A stretch of DNA of 64,000 nt from Synechococcus sp. (GCA_047284725.1 JBJBEO010000001.1:1848203-1912202); one strand, 5' to 3'. Positions 22,318-52,764 are shown, numbered from the stretch's first letter. The notes: generated by a model from the sequence alone, not told the origin. A program made the numbers and translations.

Positions 22318-22791
22318 ATGGCAGCGGATCCGAAAGAGACTTCCTCAACGGAAGAGACCACTGACGTGGCAACCAGCGATGTGGCCGTTGCAGACGCACC
22401 CGCCAAGGTCAACAGTGCTGCTTCAGGGGTGAAACTCAGCGCACAGCAGCTGATTCACGAATTTGAAGCAGCTCAGCAGAAATCCGAGCTCCCAGATATT
22501 TACGTGGGTGACACCGTCAAGGTGGGTGTTCGCATCAGCGAGGGCAATAAGGAGCGAGTCCAACCCTACGAAGGTGTGGTGATTGCCAAGCGCCATGGAG
22601 GCATCAATGCCACCATCACGGTGCGTCGCATTTTCCAGGGAATCGGCGTTGAGCGTGTGTTCATGCTTCACAGCCCCCAGGTGGCCTCCATCAAGGTCGA
22701 GCGTCGCGGTAAAGTACGTCGGGCGAAGCTTTTCTACCTGCGAGACCGAGTGGGCAAGGCCACTCGTGTGAAGCAGCGCTTCGACCGCTGA
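22318..22791 (+). CDS. rplS: 50S ribosomal protein L19
   Basis: [36 protein letters not shown]. Confidence 0.98.
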
Positions 22792-22853
22792 GGCCACGGC
22801 CTCACCCCGTCCAACAATCGTTGCTTTGCAATGGTCGAGGGGATCATCGCCTT

Positions 22854-22926
22854 GCGCCGTTAGTTCAGTTGGTAGAACGCAGGTCTCCAAAACCTGATGT
22901 CGGGGGTTCGAGTCCTCCACGGCGCG
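22854..22926 (+). tRNA. trnW: tRNA-Trp (CCA)
   Basis: GCGCCGT/ACGGCGC acceptor stem, anticodon loop CTCCAAA, GTTCGAG T-loop. Confidence 0.97.
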
Positions 22927-22962
22927 TCCGATGACCCCTCATGCACTTTCCTGAGTTCGAGC

Positions 22963-23151
22963 ATGGAGTTAGATCTTCAACCTGGTGATGTTGTGAAGGT
23001 GCTCGAATCAGCCGCCCTCGGCTGGGTTCGGGCCCGTGTGATTCGTGTCAAATCAGGCGGCAGGGTCGTTGTTCAAAGCGATCAAGGCCGTGAGTTCACA
23101 GCCCGCGGCAATCAGGTACGCCTGATTGAGCCAGCAGGGTTCCGTCCCTGA
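22963..23151 (+). CDS. hcp: Prochlorococcus/Synechococcus hyperconserved protein (62 aa)
   Basis: MELDLQPGDVVKVLESAALGWVRARVIRVKSGGRVVVQSDQGREFTARGNQVRLIEPAGFRP; rplS-trnW-hcp context. Confidence 0.95.
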   Translation: MELDLQPGDVVKVLESAALGWVRARVIRVKSGGRVVVQSDQGREFTARGNQVRLIEPAGFRP

Positions 23152-23172
23152 CAGTTCTCATTGATGGACTGT

Positions 23173-23198
23173 GACCTCGCCCAAGGGCGGGGTTTTTT
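23173..23198 (+). terminator. Intrinsic terminator after hcp
   Basis: GACCTCGCCC-AA-GGGCGGGGTTTTTT. Confidence 0.85.
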
Positions 23199-23322
23199 CA
23201 TGCCTGCATCTGCCCATGCGCTTCGGCCGTGGCCTGGCCCATGTTTTGCGAGCACAGGTGGAGTCCAGCTGGTTGACCTGATGCAACCACAACAGATCGA
23301 ACATGCCGCCGAAAACCGGCAG

Positions 23323-23405
23323 CTCTCAGGAAATTCACAGACATGCCTCAGCAGCCATTCATTGGCGGCACCCTTTTCTGAGCGATGGTGTGGTGGAGAG
23401 AAAGG
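23323..23405 (+). promoter_or_regulatory. Putative regulated promoter: three 11-bp-periodic heptamers plus -35/-10-like boxes; paralogous to the array unit
   Basis: CTCTCAG (23323), TTCACAG (23334), GCCTCAG (23345), then TTGGCG-N16-GATGGT, then GAGAGAAAGG; 58/83 ungapped identity to the minus strand of each 284-bp unit. Confidence 0.6.
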
Positions 23406-23468
23406 CAGCCCTGAGAGCAGGTTCCACGCTGCCGACCAGAGGCCAATTATTAAGAAAGTGTCAAGCCC

Positions 23469-23521
23469 TTGCGCAAGGCTTTGTAGCGTGCCATCATGAG
23501 TTCAAGGGAGGGAACACTCCC
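23469..23521 (+). promoter_or_regulatory. Possible proximal promoter and 5' hairpin of the pilin-like gene
   Basis: TTGCGC-N17-CATCAT (23469-23497) then GGGAG-GGAACA-CTCCC hairpin (23506-23521). Confidence 0.35.
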
Positions 23522-23560
23522 CCCTCATGCACAGCTCCTTTCTCTCACCCGAGCTTTCAA

Positions 23561-24019
23561 ATGAAAAACTTCAAAGCACTCGTTGCCGGTCTTGTTGCGC
23601 TGGGCGCCTTTGCTCCTGCAGCTTTCGCCGACACTTCTGATAGCACCAAGTTCCAGTATACTCGTTCATTCGCTTGTGACATTGCAGCCGACGATTCGAC
23701 GGTCGCGATGACCAAGACTGGCGACCAACTTGATGGTAGCACTGGTTTGACTGTCACTGGTGACACAAGTCTCGCCAAAGTGACTGTCCAAGTTGGAGAC
23801 ACTTCAGCCAGCGAAAATGTCACCCTCCAAGCGGGCTCGGCAATTGTGACACTTGACGGCGTTTCTTCGGAAGCAGTCACTGGATCTGGCGGCAGCAAGT
23901 CTGACAATTTCGTGCACACCTCCGTCGCGAGCGCTATGACCCTTAGCGCTCAAGTCACGGGTGCTACTGCTCTTGGCTTGTATGAAATCCCAGTCGAGGT
24001 GACCTGCGCCGAAGCTTGA
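23561..24019 (+). CDS. Secreted beta-rich protein, fimbrial major-subunit-like (152 aa)
   Basis: Sec signal MKNFKALVAGLVALGAFAPAAFA; T/S/V/G/A/D-rich alternating pattern; two Cys near the two ends of the mature chain; C-terminal GLYEIPVEVTC. CDS is secure, function is inferred. Confidence 0.7.
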   Translation: MKNFKALVAGLVALGAFAPAAFADTSDSTKFQYTRSFACDIAADDSTVAMTKTGDQLDGSTGLTVTGDTSLAKVTVQVGDTSASENVTLQAGSAIVTLDGVSSEAVTGSGGSKSDNFVHTSVASAMTLSAQVTGATALGLYEIPVEVTCAEA

Positions 24020-24070
24020 TTGATTTTCATCAGCTAACCAAAGGGAACACAGTCTCTTTGCAACTATTAA

Positions 24071-24099
24071 AAGAGAGGGGCTTTACACCCCTCTTTTTT
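24071..24099 (+). terminator. Intrinsic terminator after the pilin-like gene
   Basis: AGAGGGG-CTTTACA-CCCCTCT-TTTTT. Confidence 0.85.
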
Positions 24100-24130
24100 A
24101 TGCTACTTTTCAAATATCTAGGCTCTTAAC

Positions 24131-24511
24131 ATGATCCTTGAAGGTGCTCTTCTTGCTGCAGCATTGCAAATCAAAGGCCCCGACGTTTTAACGCGCAATA
24201 TAAAAAATGAATCCCAAGTGAGAGGCTATGCCGAAGCCGACCAAGGTAAACCTGGTGTTTACACCATCACCATTCACACTGCAGATGGAGAAGGAGTTGG
24301 AGAAGAGATCATTCCTATCACCATCCTCCCGAAAAAGCTAATACTTAAGGAAAAGAGACCGAGAACATTTTCTATGAAATTTTCACTCTCCGAAAACTAC
24401 GAAGGTCCGGTTTACTTTTGCATTAAACGAAAAAATGATCCCGGCGAAAAAGCCGGAGGACTCAGAATTAGAACTCGCACATGCTATAAGAGATCGATAC
24501 TTGCCAAATAG
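24131..24511 (+). CDS. Hypothetical protein, possibly a single-domain PapD-like chaperone
   Basis: 126 aa, beta-strand pattern, ITILPKKLIL...PRTFSM, two C-terminal Cys (VYFC...RTRTC). Confidence 0.55.
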   Translation: MILEGALLAAALQIKGPDVLTRNIKNESQVRGYAEADQGKPGVYTITIHTADGEGVGEEIIPITILPKKLILKEKRPRTFSMKFSLSENYEGPVYFCIKRKNDPGEKAGGLRIRTRTCYKRSILAK

Positions 24512-24516
24512 ACCGC

Positions 24517-25047
24517 ATGACTCACTGCAACATCAAAATGTTTCGCCCCAAGGCAATTAATTTCAGATTATTTTTCCTGCTATTTGCTTATTGCTTTTTT
24601 CCTGCAAATGCCTTCTCTCAAATAACAACTTTTGAGCCAGTCACTGGCACGTCCAACGAACTTCTTCTCGATGATTTGGGGCTCTCCTCCATACAACAAC
24701 CAGAAGGAAGAACATTTACTCTTGAACTGCCTGATGGATTAGTTTGCGAATCAACTGATGGAACTCCACCTTCACTGAATCTCTATGCAGGCACATCAGA
24801 TCGAACCAATTCATTTCAACGCTCCAGCGATTATTACACGGGAGGCATTGGTGCAGGTGCTGTAGTTTCAATACCTTTGAACACAAAAGAAAAAAGAAAC
24901 TGTGATGCAGCTTACAAAAGCTATTTAAATTCGAAGCAACTTGAAACAGCCCAATTGCTCTACGAGCTCGGGGTCATGAATGACGACGAACTTCAAGAAT
25001 TCGCAAACCGCATCAAAGATTTGCTTATTAATTCAAGCCAAAATTAA
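24517..25047 (+). CDS. Exported hypothetical protein
   Basis: Signal peptide (..FFPANAFS), GLVC..., GAVVSIPL...NC, helical C-terminus; 5 nt after the previous stop; alternative ATG 24538. Confidence 0.7.
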   Translation: MTHCNIKMFRPKAINFRLFFLLFAYCFFPANAFSQITTFEPVTGTSNELLLDDLGLSSIQQPEGRTFTLELPDGLVCESTDGTPPSLNLYAGTSDRTNSFQRSSDYYTGGIGAGAVVSIPLNTKEKRNCDAAYKSYLNSKQLETAQLLYELGVMNDDELQEFANRIKDLLINSSQN

Positions 25048-25056
25048 AATATCTGG

Positions 25057-25296
25057 CTACCGATCGTTAACTTTACAACCAATAAGGTCTTCGCCTCCCA
25101 AATCAGAAACGAAATAGCGACAAGTTTCCACAATAGTTTCCTCAACCTTAAAACGAAATATTACCCGAACGCTTTTTTTTTCGATACCTGCTACTCGATG
25201 CCTCTCACTATTTATGCCATTTTGTATGAGTACAAAAGAAAAAATCAGCACAAGAACCACAAGAGTGCAATAATATACTGATTTTTTTTGCATCAT
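25057..25296 (-). CDS. Small membrane-anchored hypothetical protein
   Basis: N-terminal TM helix, two Cys in the C-terminal half; AT-rich. Confidence 0.5.
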   Translation of the reverse strand: MMQKKSVYYCTLVVLVLIFSFVLIQNGINSERHRVAGIEKKSVRVIFRFKVEETIVETCRYFVSDLGGEDLIGCKVNDR

Positions 25297-25315
25297 TCTC
25301 AAGCCTTAAACTTTG

Positions 25316-25603
25316 CTATTGCAACTTTTTATGCAAGGTCTCTGTTGAAACTCTCCCGTTAGTCAAATCAATACAAGAGACAGAAGTCACTGTATCTAAA
25401 GGTTGATTGGCTAAGAAATTACTTGCAGCATTTAGGCAAATGCTATGTCTTTGAAATTGAAAAGCGACGGCATCTATTGTACTAGAGCCTTGAGTTCTCA
25501 CCTGAATAACCATTTGCGACCGCGCCATCACTGGCGCAGAGGCAAAGGCTAAAAGCATCAATTGTGAGAGTGGAGCCCAAGCGAAAAGCCGCAACCGTTT
25601 CAT
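25316..25603 (-). CDS. Small secreted hypothetical protein
   Basis: Signal peptide (..LLAFASAPVMA), F-x5-C-x2-A...C pattern. Confidence 0.6.
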   Translation of the reverse strand: MKRLRLFAWAPLSQLMLLAFASAPVMARSQMVIQVRTQGSSTIDAVAFQFQRHSICLNAASNFLANQPLDTVTSVSCIDLTNGRVSTETLHKKLQ

Positions 25604-26074
25604 AAAATCGATCTAATTAGAATTGAACGCGAACTGGTCAGGATGCCAGCGAAAAACCAATTTCGCCCATAACGACAAACAATTGAGAAATTGAGAGGCT
25701 TCAGAGCAAACAGGGAAATCCCTTTTCCTTCTTAGCTTGAGAACAAACAATTCACAAGGCTGCATGAAGTTTCTATGCAAAGTTTTGCTCTCCAAACGAC
25801 TCAATCTCCATCATGATTGAACTCATGGCAGGCGTAGCAACTTGAATGCTGCGGCCAAACCCTTGACGCAACCTTTGATCCAAGTCAAGCAAGCTGACAG
25901 CCTCTTGCGACTTTAGAGATCCATACACCTCAAACTGCTTGATCCCCGCCATGCACGGATCAAGCCCGTGATTGACCGACAAAGCATGGAGCGGCAGCGC
26001 AGCCCGGCGACCTGACCCACGCCATCACCATCAGGGCCTGTTCCTTGATGGGCCTGAATCGGGCAGCAAGCAAT

Positions 26075-26103
26075 AAAAAAGGCGCCCATGCAGGCGCCCC
26101 TTT
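26075..26103 (-). terminator. Intrinsic terminator in repeat copy 1 (recurs at +284, +568, +852, +1136)
   Basis: Minus strand AAAGG-GGCGCCT-GCAT-GGGCGCC-TTTTTT. Confidence 0.8.
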
Positions 26104-26110
26104 CTCTCAA
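26075..26110 (-). ncRNA. Candidate tiny RNA (~35-40 nt), one per repeat copy
   Basis: Lies between the conserved promoter-like element and the terminator: UGAGAGAAAGGGGCGCCUGCAUGGGCGCCUUUUUU; inferred only, no expression data. Confidence 0.4.
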
Positions 26111-26181
26111 GACCAACATCGCGCACATCGATGCCCGGTCAATGGGTGGCCACTGAGAGCTATCTGTGAATTACCTGAGAG
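26099..26181 (-). promoter_or_regulatory. Promoter-like element in repeat copy 1 (recurs in all five copies)
   Basis: Minus strand CTCTCAG-N4-TTCACAG-N4-CTCTCAG...TTGACC-N16-GATGTT...GAGAGAAAGG; colinear with 23323-23405. Confidence 0.6.
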
Positions 26182-27623
26182 TCCTGGTGGACGGTTGCAG
26201 AGGCGGCCCCTGCTATCGCCGTCCCGCCCCCGCCATGCACGGATCAAGCCCGTGATTGACCGACAAAGCATGGAGCGGCAGCGCAGCCCGGCGACCTGAC
26301 CCACGCCATCACCATCAGGGCCTGTTCCTTGATGGGCCTGAATCGGGCAGCAAGCAATAAAAAAGGCGCCCATGCAGGCGCCCCTTTCTCTCAAGACCAA
26401 CATCGCGCACATCGATGCCCGGTCAATGGGTGGCCACTGAGAGCTATCTGTGAATTACCTGAGAGTCCTGGTGGACGGTTGCAGAGGCGGCCCCTGCTAT
26501 CGCCGTCCCGCCCCCGCCATGCACGGATCAAGCCCGTGATTGACCGACAAAGCATGGAGCGGCAGCGCAGCCCGGCGACCTGACCCACGCCATCACCATC
26601 AGGGCCTGTTCCTTGATGGGCCTGAATCGGGCAGCAAGCAATAAAAAAGGCGCCCATGCAGGCGCCCCTTTCTCTCAAGACCAACATCGCGCACATCGAT
26701 GCCCGGTCAATGGGTGGCCACTGAGAGCTATCTGTGAATTACCTGAGAGTCCTGGTGGACGGTTGCAGAGGCGGCCCCTGCTATCGCCGTCCCGCCCCCG
26801 CCATGCACGGATCAAGCCCGTGATTGACCGACAAAGCATGGAGCGGCAGCGCAGCCCGGCGACCTGACCCACGCCATCACCATCAGGGCCTGTTCCTTGA
26901 TGGGCCTGAATCGGGCAGCAAGCAATAAAAAAGGCGCCCATGCAGGCGCCCCTTTCTCTCAAGACCAACATCGCGCACATCGATGCCCGGTCAATGGGTG
27001 GCCACTGAGAGCTATCTGTGAATTACCTGAGAGTCCTGGTGGACGGTTGCAGAGGCGACCCCTGCTATCGCCGTCCCGCCCCCGCCATGCACGGATCAAG
27101 CCCGTGATTGACCGACAAAGCATGGAGCGGCAGCGCAGCCCGGCGACCTGACCCACGCCATCACCATCAGGGCCTGTTCCTTGATGGGCCTGAATCGGGC
27201 AGCAAGCAATAAAAAAGGCGCCCATGCAGGCGCCCCTTTCTCTCAAGACCAACATCGCGCACATCGATGCCCGGTCAATGGGTGGCCACTGAGAGCTATC
27301 TGTGAATTACCTGAGAGTCCTGGTGGACGGTTGCAGAGGCGGCCCCGAAACAAGCCTTCGCGAAAAGCCTCGCAAGACGGTCATGTTTCCGGGTTATTGA
27401 CAGACACCCTGTCTTCGGCGGAATAGCGCCACGTTGACGCTTGCTGATCGAAGTCCGATCCCAGGCGATTCTGCCGGCCTGCGTCCGTCTCCGGTTCCGC
27501 TTCATGGGCACAAAGCCTTGGACTGGCCTCGCCTCGAGTCGACCAGACCAGCCAGAACACGGGTGAACACTTCGCGTCACTGACAACCGTTTGAGGCATC
27601 CACCAGCTGATTCAGGCAGTTGG

Positions 27624-27653
27624 TTGACGGAGGGCAGGGCTGAGGTCGATACT
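27624..27653 (+). promoter_or_regulatory. Sigma70-like promoter for trnD-gltX
   Basis: TTGACG-N18-GATACT about 60 nt upstream of the tRNA. Confidence 0.5.
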
Positions 27654-27716
27654 TTCTGAGTCGCGCAAGCGATGCAGGGCAATCGCAGGTGAAGTCGCAC
27701 CTGACGATGCATGCCT

Positions 27717-27790
27717 GGGACCGTAGTTCAATTGGTTAGAGCACCGCCCTGTCACGGCGGAAGTTGCGGGTTCGAGCCCCGTCGGTCCCG
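27717..27790 (+). tRNA. trnD: tRNA-Asp (GTC)
   Basis: GGGACCG/CGGTCCC acceptor stem, anticodon loop CTGTCAC, GTTCGAG. Confidence 0.97.
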
Positions 27791-27810
27791 TTCCAAACCT
27801 CCACACCACC

Positions 27811-29244
27811 GTGTCGGTTCGCGTTCGTCTGGCTCCAAGCCCTACAGGAACCCTCCATATTGGAACGGCTCGAACAGCGGTTTTCAACTGGTTGTTTGCG
27901 CGCAACAGCGGCGGATCCTTCCTCCTTCGCATCGAAGATACCGACCGCGAACGATCCAAGGACGCCTTTACCGCCAACATCCTCGAAGGCTTGCAGTGGC
28001 TTGGCATCAACTGGGACGAAGAGCCCGTCATCCAAAGCAAGCGGATTGCCGATCACCGTGCGGCGATCCAGACGCTGCTTGATCGGGGCTTGGCCTACCG
28101 CTGCTACGCCAACGAACGTGAGCTTGAGGCCATGCGCAAGGCCCAGAAAGCCGCCAATCAGGCCCCCCGCTACGACAACCGCCACCGTGATCTAACCCCT
28201 GAGCAGGAAGCGGCTTTCCAACAGGAAGGCAGAGATGCAGTGATCCGTTTCCGCATCGATGACAACGCCGAAATCCGCTGGACCGACCTCGTCAGAGGCC
28301 CCATGAGCTGGCGGGGTGCGGATCTCGGTGGCGACATGGTGGTGGCCCGCAGGGCTCCAGCCGATCAGATCGGAGATCCCCTCTACAACCTTGTGGTGGT
28401 GGTGGATGACGCGGCGATGGCGATCACCCATGTGATTCGAGGCGAAGACCACATCGCCAACACCGCCAAGCAACTGCTGCTCTACGAAGCACTAGGCCTC
28501 TCCAAACCGACTTTCGCCCACACACCGCTGATCCTGAACTCCGAAGGGCGCAAATTGTCCAAGCGTGATGGAGTCACCTCCATCAGCGACTTCCGCTCGA
28601 TGGGCTACACCGCTGATGCGATCGCCAACTACATGACGTTGTTGGGCTGGTCTGTACCGGAAGGAATGGAGGAGCGCTTCACCCTGGCTCAAGCGGCTGA
28701 GGTCTTCAGTTTCGATCGTGTCAATAAAGCGGGTGCCCGCTTCGACTGGGACAAACTCAACTGGCTCAATGCCCAGGTTCTCCACGAGCAGACTCCCGAG
28801 CAGCTCTTGGCTGCACTCGAACCGCTCTGGTCTGAACAGGGCTGGACGCTCCCCAACGACCGCAACTGGTCGCTTGCGCTGTGTGAACTGCTTGGCCCCT
28901 CCCTGACCCTGATCAAAGACGGAATCGATCAAGCGGCTCCGTTCTTTGCAGAACCGCCCCTCGAAGACGATGCCGTCAAACAACTGGAGCAGGAAGGGGC
29001 CCGCAACGCCCTGAAGGCGCTGCTCTCAAACCTCGACGCCAGCCCTTGGGATGGCATCAACCGTGACGAGGGCCAAGAGCTGCTGGCCAACGCAGTCAAA
29101 ACCGCTGGTGTGAAGAAAGGGGTGTTGATGAAGTCCCTGAGGGCCGCCTTGCTCGGACGACTGCAAGGTCCTGACCTGATGACCACCTGGGGGCTACTGG
29201 CCAGACTCGGGGCTGACCGTCAACGCATTCACCGCAGCGTCTGA
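27811..29244 (+). CDS. gltX: Glutamate--tRNA ligase
   Basis: [28 protein letters not shown]. Confidence 0.97.

Positions 29245-51087: not shown

Positions 51088-52764
<1,677 letters not shown>

Follow-up and report, generated by a model that had tools for sequence, protein, structure and literature searches.

A candidate small-RNA array shares a promoter-like element with the gene of a secreted protein in a marine Synechococcus

Tandem arrays of small RNAs (sRNAs) are known from cyanobacteria, and the closest described counterpart of the locus reported here is NsiR1 of Nostoc/Anabaena sp. PCC 7120. According to the accessible parts of PMC9045159, nsiR1 lies upstream of the adjacent gene hetF, on whose 5′ untranslated region (UTR) its RNA acts, in 12 tandem copies that each have their own promoter and of which the central 7 are identical; as described there and in the accessible parts of PMC6596454, each repeat combines a promoter motif, a ~60-nucleotide (nt) RNA and a terminator, and the peripheral copies have diverged. 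The same parts of PMC6596454 report tandem arrays with highly expressed sRNAs in Trichodesmium, near-identical in their transcribed portions and with no function assigned, and both sources, as far as accessible, hold that several copies of sibling sRNAs, such as those of the cyanobacterial Yfr2 family (1-9 copies), may act additively. Here we analyze 64,000 nt of DNA from Synechococcus sp. (GCA_047284725.1, JBJBEO010000001.1:1848203-1912202; this whole stretch is the window), in which an 83-bp element precedes the gene of a 152-aa secreted protein and recurs, on the other strand, in every unit of a tandem array 2 kb downstream. We tentatively read this locus as a narrowly distributed, multicopy small-RNA/promoter array of the NsiR1 kind that would lie beside its target gene.

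Like the NsiR1 array, the present one consists of direct tandem repeats in a cyanobacterium, each with an intrinsic terminator, and has base-pairing potential with an adjacent 5′ UTR. The two have no sequence or Rfam relationship, and the RNA, predicted here from sequence alone, would measure ~34 nt as against ~60 nt. The NsiR1 array, as the available text describes it, overlaps its target, whereas here the array lies downstream and could pair in trans only; unlike in NsiR1, the putative sRNA promoter has a homolog in the promoter region of the target itself. The Trichodesmium repeats, at 736-973 bp with transcripts of ~250 nt in the accessible text, are far from the 284-bp units and short predicted RNA found here, which in addition have a candidate target nearby. 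Unlike Yfr2-type siblings, the copies are strictly tandem and identical, and they have no Yfr match in Rfam. An earlier note on this DNA had not recognized the arrangement as a described system; NsiR1 is such a system, a tandem promoter-sRNA-terminator array (PMC9045159, in the parts accessible), and by analogy its precedent would favor our reading. In the literature we found no described equivalent in marine Synechococcus, the main survey of its small RNAs not being covered. The features on which the argument turns are as follows.

23323-23405, plus strand: 83-bp element, copy A; 58/83 identical to the array copies, nhmmer E 3.3e-24
23406-23560, plus strand: leader of the 152-aa gene; a transcription start at 23396 would make it 165 nt long
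23534-23547, plus strand: CU box, GCTCCTTTCTCTCA; its complements are the 5′ end of the predicted RNA and the 3′-terminal part of element A
23561-24019, plus strand: gene of the 152-aa secreted protein, with a Sec-type signal peptide and without a family
25944-27346, minus strand: tandem array (Tandem Repeats Finder: period 284, 4.9 copies, 99% matches)
26075-26098, minus strand: intrinsic terminator of array copy 1, GGCGCC-loop-GGCGCC followed by T6, recurring every 284 nt
26099-26181, minus strand: 83-bp element, array copy 1
26383-26465, 26667-26749, 26951-27033 and 27235-27317, minus strand: further array copies of the element

Copy A and the minus strand of each array unit (version B of the element) can be aligned gap-free, with 58 of 83 positions identical, which confirms the earlier note, and the likeness breaks off abruptly at both borders. 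The background for such a match is low: over 119,236 placements of the element elsewhere in the window, with both strands included, the mean was 21 and the maximum 42/83. An nhmmer profile built from both versions finds only these six copies at E<1 in the window, all at this locus, with no additional diverged copy and none dispersed; the pair formed by copy A and the array was missed by a generic repeat finder. The array, the upstream element and the complementarity in the leader are connected with one another by sequence. The outermost 19 nt are the best-kept part between the two versions (18/19), and this 19-mer has six occurrences in the window against an expectation of 0.08: one precedes the gene and five belong to the array. 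The homology, its sharp borders and the local confinement of all six copies would favor the array reading.

Within the element, heptamers of the form YTCWCAG begin at positions 1, 12 and 23 in both versions, an exact 11-bp phase (CTCTCAG, TTCACAG and GCCTCAG in copy A; CTCTCAG, TTCACAG and CTCTCAG in the array copies), and the pattern also matches itself when shifted by 11 nt. A fourth, weaker heptamer at position 34 adjoins a -35-like box in both. Winged-helix response regulators usually have sites laid out as direct repeats with a spacing of one helical turn. The phased heptamers could be sites for one regulator, with a winged-helix response regulator as a lead. Downstream, copy A carries a -35-like TTGGCG, 16 nt and a -10-like GATGGT, and the array copies carry, at the same positions, TTGACC, a 16-nt spacer and GATGTT; the weak -10-like box retains A2 and T6, and both versions end in GAGAGAAAGG. 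This terminal 10-mer is found seven times in the window against 0.15 expected, the seventh being a reverse complement inside the leader of the 152-aa gene. The earlier note had described the identity as concentrated in the boxes: the heptamers and core boxes are indeed kept in position, but the clustering of matches into blocks is only slight, with 29 runs where 36 +/- 3.8 would be expected (P=0.046). The first 8 nt of copy A (23323-23330, CTCTCAGG) recur perfectly inverted at 23409-23416 (CCTGAGAG), 4 nt past the element; the array copies instead carry CTTGAGAG inside the 3′ end of the element.

On its minus strand, each array unit comprises 46 nt, the 83-bp element, the terminator and a spacer of ~130 nt. 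Units 1-3 are identical, unit 4 has one mismatch, and unit 5 is diverged in its final 17 nt. The terminator consists of a 6-bp GC stem, a 6-nt loop and T6, with a stem that extends to 13 bp through pairing of AAAGG with the U-run (-19.4 kcal/mol), and it directly follows the element in all five units; the note's statement that the element runs straight into a T6 terminator is borne out, and the unit can reasonably be taken as a promoter-like module plus terminator. A minus-strand RNA from GAGAGAAAGG to the end of the T-run, 26108 to 26075, would measure 34 nt. The exact heptamer phase in both versions, together with a terminator in 5/5 array copies, would favor such a transcription unit. The array as a whole holds four full units plus 267 nt; the absent 17 nt fall at its junction with low-GC DNA (25927-25944), a hint that this border later underwent a deletion or insertion. 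When the whole unit was considered as a structured RNA, it was rejected as not unusually structured (z -0.57 and -0.48 for the two strands). Rfam 15 at gathering thresholds gives three matches in the whole window, all tRNAs, and at E<=10 across 22900-27720 it gives ten sub-threshold matches (E 1.2-8.8), with no Yfr family at E<1.

The link between the array and the gene lies in the leader. Situated 14-27 nt ahead of the ATG at 23561, the CU box agrees with the array plus strand in 13 of 14 positions and could form 14 bp with the minus-strand RNA, including one G-U pair, in keeping with the claim of the earlier note that the 5′ end of the RNA is complementary to 14 nt just upstream of the start codon. 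Among 24,968 windows outside the array, none forms a better duplex with the RNA's first 18 nt than the CU box does (-25.2 against -23.4 kcal/mol for the next). For the full 34-nt RNA, two CU-box windows rank first and second of 2,900 by co-folding gain (-13.2 and -12.4), with the next unrelated window at -10.0, a mean of -1.3 and a standard deviation of 1.6. The pairing strengths of RNA and leader are thermodynamic predictions, and by these two measures the rank of the CU box as the top target in the window would favor its role as a partner of the RNA. Folded together, the 34-nt RNA and the leader are predicted to be more stable than when folded apart by 11.4 kcal/mol, or by 8.7 kcal/mol if a competing cis helix within the leader, described below, may form. 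In addition, leader positions 23526-23546 and array plus-strand positions 26087-26108 share CATGCA, 5 and 6 nt before CCTTTCTCTC, which lengthens the predicted pairing to two helices of 13 and 9 bp in the co-fold. The TGCATG 5-6 nt from the 10-mer had also raised the possibility of a third partial copy of the element (minus strand, 23546), which was rejected because similarity is absent upstream of it, and the stretch was counted as complementarity. An exact 11-nt match (TGGGCGCCTTT) between the signal-peptide region of the 152-aa gene (23601-23611) and the descending arm of the terminator plus T-run on the minus strand is probably chance.

Relatives of the array unit were reached through its translation. 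The minus-strand frame of the array, used as a probe, retrieves two environmental open reading frames (ORFs), P0004 on a 743-nt contig and P0005 on a 3,891-nt contig. Both start in the native spacer upstream of tRNA-Asp (from about window position 27599 downward), where the minus-strand translation is common to them and to our sequence, and continue directly into the element at the same junction. Because they share this flank-to-element junction, the unit would predate the amplification; it is, on this evidence, a part of this locus in a small clade and older than the five-fold array. P0004 also spans the terminator and most of the spacer; 8 of its 87 residues beyond the junction are changed, compared with 12 of 73 in the flank. 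Two residue blocks, SGNSQ and PLT, are unchanged in 3/3 versions (ours, P0004 and P0005), and they span heptamers 1-2 and the -35-like box. The P0004 ORF leaves its contig ~12 nt before the point where our array period restarts, and an assembly break at this place would be expected if tandem copies existed there too.

That the array encodes small proteins, repeating 101-aa minus-strand or 84-aa plus-strand ORFs, is most improbable. Frames of 84-101 aa are open in every unit, and AAAGGGG stands 7 nt ahead of an ATG in the hairpin loop as read directly. In contrast, the G+C content of these ORFs is flat over the codon positions (0.59/0.64/0.60 and 0.66/0.59/0.59), unlike that of the nearby gltX (0.66/0.44/0.71); the frame open in P0004 has two stops here, with a 1-nt indel between the two sequences; and the 101-aa ORF is not a called gene in the protein collection. 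We take the unit as noncoding because of this flat composition and because the frame that is open in P0004 is interrupted here. A noncoding unit whose junction and residue blocks are kept in both relatives would speak for the array reading.

The following working of the locus is proposed. The 83-bp element would be a regulated promoter in which phased heptamers bind a regulator ahead of weak -35/-10-like boxes and a start region at GAGAGAAAGG. The left element would begin the 165-nt leader of the orphan secreted-protein gene, while the right element, meeting a strong terminator at once, would yield a 34-39-nt RNA per unit, the right unit having presumably been amplified recently to five near-identical copies. 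The short RNA and the mRNA would then begin with the same 10 nt, both complementary to the CU box. A co-regulated, multicopy RNA that binds the CU box may block the initiation region or displace the helix formed by the mRNA's own 5′ end. The output of the neighboring gene would in this way be set as in the NsiR1 case, with copy number acting as RNA dose.

Several points weigh against this reading. The locus is known from its sequence, and the RNA, the transcription start, the regulator and the effect of RNA on RNA are read out of it. A consensus promoter scan gives 0 sites in the six elements (3 in the region against 3.3 expected), and copy A lacks a canonical TAnnnT box because it contains no TA dinucleotide. 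The 14-mer is a borderline match when treated as generic local similarity, its score being reached by 8 of 200 shuffles. The minimum-energy fold of the predicted RNA is almost wholly terminator stem with 4 unpaired 5′ nt only, and the pairing stretch lies partly inside that stem. Outside the window, the exact 19-mer occurs at 15 loci in 185,579 species-representative genomes, none of them cyanobacterial and all at chance level beyond the 19-mer (9-28/64 identical), in a scan that demands an exact match, missed the window's own genome and says little on diverged copies. In P0005, 7 of 19 visible element codons differ, compared with 6 of 73 in the flank, and outside its two residue blocks the element is, in these translations, poorly conserved. 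Finally, the near-identity of the array copies shows recent amplification or homogenization rather than selection.

The main rival is a neutral remnant, which we regard as doubtful rather than remote. In this explanation the 83-bp copies go back to an inverted duplication or a rearrangement long ago at the borders of the inserted DNA, the 284-bp array is a selectively irrelevant recent amplification, through slippage or unequal exchange, of a stretch that happens to hold a bidirectional terminator, and neither RNA nor regulator plays a part. Units that are identical or 1 nt apart, the lack of a canonical promoter with only mild clustering of matches, an element diverged in P0005 and narrow in distribution, and an A-run/hairpin/T-rich layout typical of a two-way terminator all agree with it. 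It is less at ease with homology borders that fall sharply on a heptamer at one end and on the 10-mer at the other, with an exact 11-bp heptamer phase in both diverged versions, and with two residue blocks kept in 3/3 array-type versions. Nor does it account for a complement of the 10-mer that recurs in the sole leader with another copy of the element, where it is the best target in 64 kb.

A further point against the array reading concerns the leader itself. Given an mRNA start at 23396, the CU box is predicted to pair, at a probability >0.99, with the first 10 nt of the mRNA itself (fold of 23396-23600), in a cis helix that closes a 150-nt leader domain, and the complementarity would then need no RNA acting in trans. 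On this basis RNA pairing could be dispensable: the element would be a shared promoter of two inward transcription units, the cis helix would control stability or translation, and the array would be a regulator decoy or a source of read-through for the minus-strand ORFs at 25603-25057. We consider this explanation unlikely. Apart from the predicted cis helix, it is consistent with array elements that face those minus-strand ORFs and with the "actuatons" described in cyanobacteria in the accessible text of PMC6596454, in which sRNA promoters drive downstream genes by read-through. Against it stand the strength of the terminator (13 bp, -19.4 kcal/mol, T6) and the ~470 nt that separate it from the first convincing minus-strand ORF; its transcription start is likewise assumed and its regulator putative.

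The array reading also has to be seen in its genomic setting. The source of the window, with a G+C content of ~60%, is evidently a marine picocyanobacterium of the Synechococcus type, and the locus interrupts a gene order that runs from rpl19 to gltX (22318-29244).

22318-22791: rpl19
22853-22929, plus strand: tRNA-Trp, within the conserved left flank (ARAGORN; Rfam tRNA 68.9 bits)
22963-23151, plus strand: PSHCP, 62 aa, left anchor of the islet (PDB 6nnb, E 2.4e-31)
23173-23194: terminator-like hairpin after PSHCP
27347-27715, plus strand: native spacer that precedes tRNA-Asp and contains a promoter-like site (27624-27653)
27716-27791, plus strand: tRNA-Asp, right anchor of the islet
27811-29244: gltX, after tRNA-Asp

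PSHCP is the "Prochlorococcus/Synechococcus Hyper Conserved Protein" of the title of PDB 6nnb. According to the accessible parts of PMC4215834, its gene has tRNA-Trp on the 5′ side and tRNA-Asp and gltX on the 3′ side in all examined picocyanobacteria, with rpl19 also upstream, and the accessible text of bioRxiv 10.1101/542068 states identical flanks for genomes sequenced to completion. In the present DNA, 4.56 kb separate PSHCP from tRNA-Asp, which breaks the order rpl19-tRNA-Trp-PSHCP-tRNA-Asp-gltX. Because the two are reported as neighbors, we take the intervening DNA as a ~4.5-kb strain-variable islet in a normally invariant gap. The islet core (24000-25900) has a G+C content of 0.36-0.46 against ~0.6 on both sides, and the 83-bp module stands at both of its ends, the copies inverted relative to each other and each facing inward: element A toward the 152-aa gene, the array copies toward two small minus-strand ORFs at 25603-25057. 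The earlier account had overlooked these inward-facing elements across a low-GC islet, as well as the cis alternative and the presence of the unit in relatives.

Inverted copies that flank DNA of low G+C content, 0.36-0.43 against ~0.6 outside it, within an otherwise conserved gene order, with their outermost 19 nt best conserved, could also belong to a defunct non-autonomous mobile element, the 83-bp copies being complex terminal inverted repeats with phased protein-binding heptamers that brought low-GC cargo with them. This we judge improbable. Scans of the islet ORFs (eight against Pfam, six against NCBIfam; E<=1) reveal no transposase or integrase and no chaperone, usher, spore-coat-U (SCPU) or pilin family. 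Target-site duplication is absent at 23322/27318, where the flanking bases differ as read directly, and the amplified unit reaches 46 nt past the outer end of the element. The 19-mer is dispersed neither in the window nor in the species-representative genomes, its six copies all being at this locus. Searches of phage and plasmid collections with the locus (blastn, 23150-27400) and with the 152-aa protein (tblastn) returned no match. A tRNA-targeting integrative island was rejected as well, since neither an integrase family nor a duplicated tRNA fragment (att site) was found: comparison of tRNA-Trp, tRNA-Asp and tRNA-Val with 23152-27715 gave no fragment of >=10 nt. The route by which the islet DNA entered is marked by neither feature.

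The proteins of the islet bear on what such an array might regulate. The remaining features between the 152-aa gene and the array are the following.

24068-24100, plus strand: strong hairpin and T-run that follow the 152-aa gene and resemble a terminator on either strand
24131-24511, plus strand: 126-aa low-GC ORF, no family found
24517-25047, plus strand: 176-aa low-GC ORF with a signal-peptide-like N-terminal segment, no family found
25057-25603, minus strand: 81-aa and 95-aa low-GC ORFs, convergent with the plus-strand ORFs, no family found

The earlier note had called this a fimbria-like cassette with a pilin-like gene, a description that lacks support: no chaperone, usher or pilin family turned up among the islet ORFs scanned, and the gene encodes a near-orphan Sec-type secreted protein. 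Its N-terminal Sec-type signal peptide, read directly, ends in AFA before DTSD. For the 152-aa protein, an exhaustive HMMER search of 1.84 billion representatives yields two relatives only, which are 50% and 35% identical to it, with Cys39 and Cys149 invariant in the resulting three-member family; a word-index search returns the self-match only. The protein has no family in Pfam, NCBIfam, PDB, PADLOC or PHROGs, and a profile of the three-member family against PDB sequences gives nothing below E 0.015, with weak immunoglobulin-like matches. AlphaFold2, run on the 3-sequence alignment, produced an unusable model (predicted local distance difference test, pLDDT, 45.5). A prepilin-type N-terminus has a short leader, a conserved Gly and a hydrophobic helix with Glu5. 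A type IV pilin was rejected for the 152-aa protein, whose signal peptide is Sec-type and not prepilin-type; the sole pilin-related Pfam match, PilE_C at E 0.46, is below its own cutoff. A language-model search for look-alikes returns cyanobacterial hypothetical proteins, with 3 of 30 hits in SCPU-type clusters (score 0.94), and we treat this likeness as a lead only: no fimbrial or SCPU domain is found in the three family members at E<=10. Chaperone-usher, SCPU/Csu and type IV pilus clusters share with the islet solely a small, secreted, beta-rich protein of ~150 aa, and chaperone-usher and SCPU clusters differ in the usher, chaperone, SCPU or pilin domains that the scanned islet ORFs lack.

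The 13-bp hairpin at 24068-24100, between an A-run and a T-run, splits the 152-aa gene (54% G+C) from the downstream ORFs (36-43% G+C), and because it does so the "cassette" probably consists of at least two transcription units of different origin. Among the latter ORFs, the 95-aa ORF has a signal-peptide-like N-terminus and the 81-aa ORF has one hydrophobic segment. PADLOC and PHROGs give nothing at E<0.06 for seven islet ORFs, and for two ORFs the ESM Atlas returns, apart from the SCPU lead, only unnamed clusters. In sum the islet is, as far as its sequences indicate, one of small secreted proteins without a known family. Since at least three of its small proteins have signal-peptide-like N-termini, as read directly, surface or secreted cargo would fit the array reading. 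Elsewhere in the window, at 52686-52748, a 9-bp tandem repeat (CATGGGTGG-like, at least 5 copies) lies near the 3′ end of a 558-aa ORF (51088-52764); it would encode a Gly-Gly-Met tail, presumably of the kind found in GroEL-type chaperonins.

Marine picocyanobacteria have few protein regulators, and their genomic islets are believed to influence how they interact with phages and grazers. Against this background, an extension of the array reading can be imagined that we hold to be a long shot: a circuit tunable by copy number in which the array RNA mimics the 5′ end of the mRNA. One regulator would fire both the orphan surface-protein gene and the array of 34-nt RNAs, the RNAs would compete with the mRNA 5′ end for the CU box, and the leader would switch between protected and exposed states. 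Recombination within the 284-bp units would alter the dose heritably, so that cells would differ in a surface protein that phages or grazers may recognize.

With both partners within 4 kb and a pairing stretch of 10-14 nt, the locus is easy to test. If the array is not transcribed, it is a recent tandem amplification in a small foreign islet and a marker that the PSHCP-tRNA-Asp gap, supposedly invariant, can take insertions. If transcripts do arise from it, marine picocyanobacteria would have their first tandem small-RNA array linked to a particular neighboring gene, and a shared promoter module with identical RNA and mRNA 5′ ends would, if true, be a twist on the NsiR1 model.

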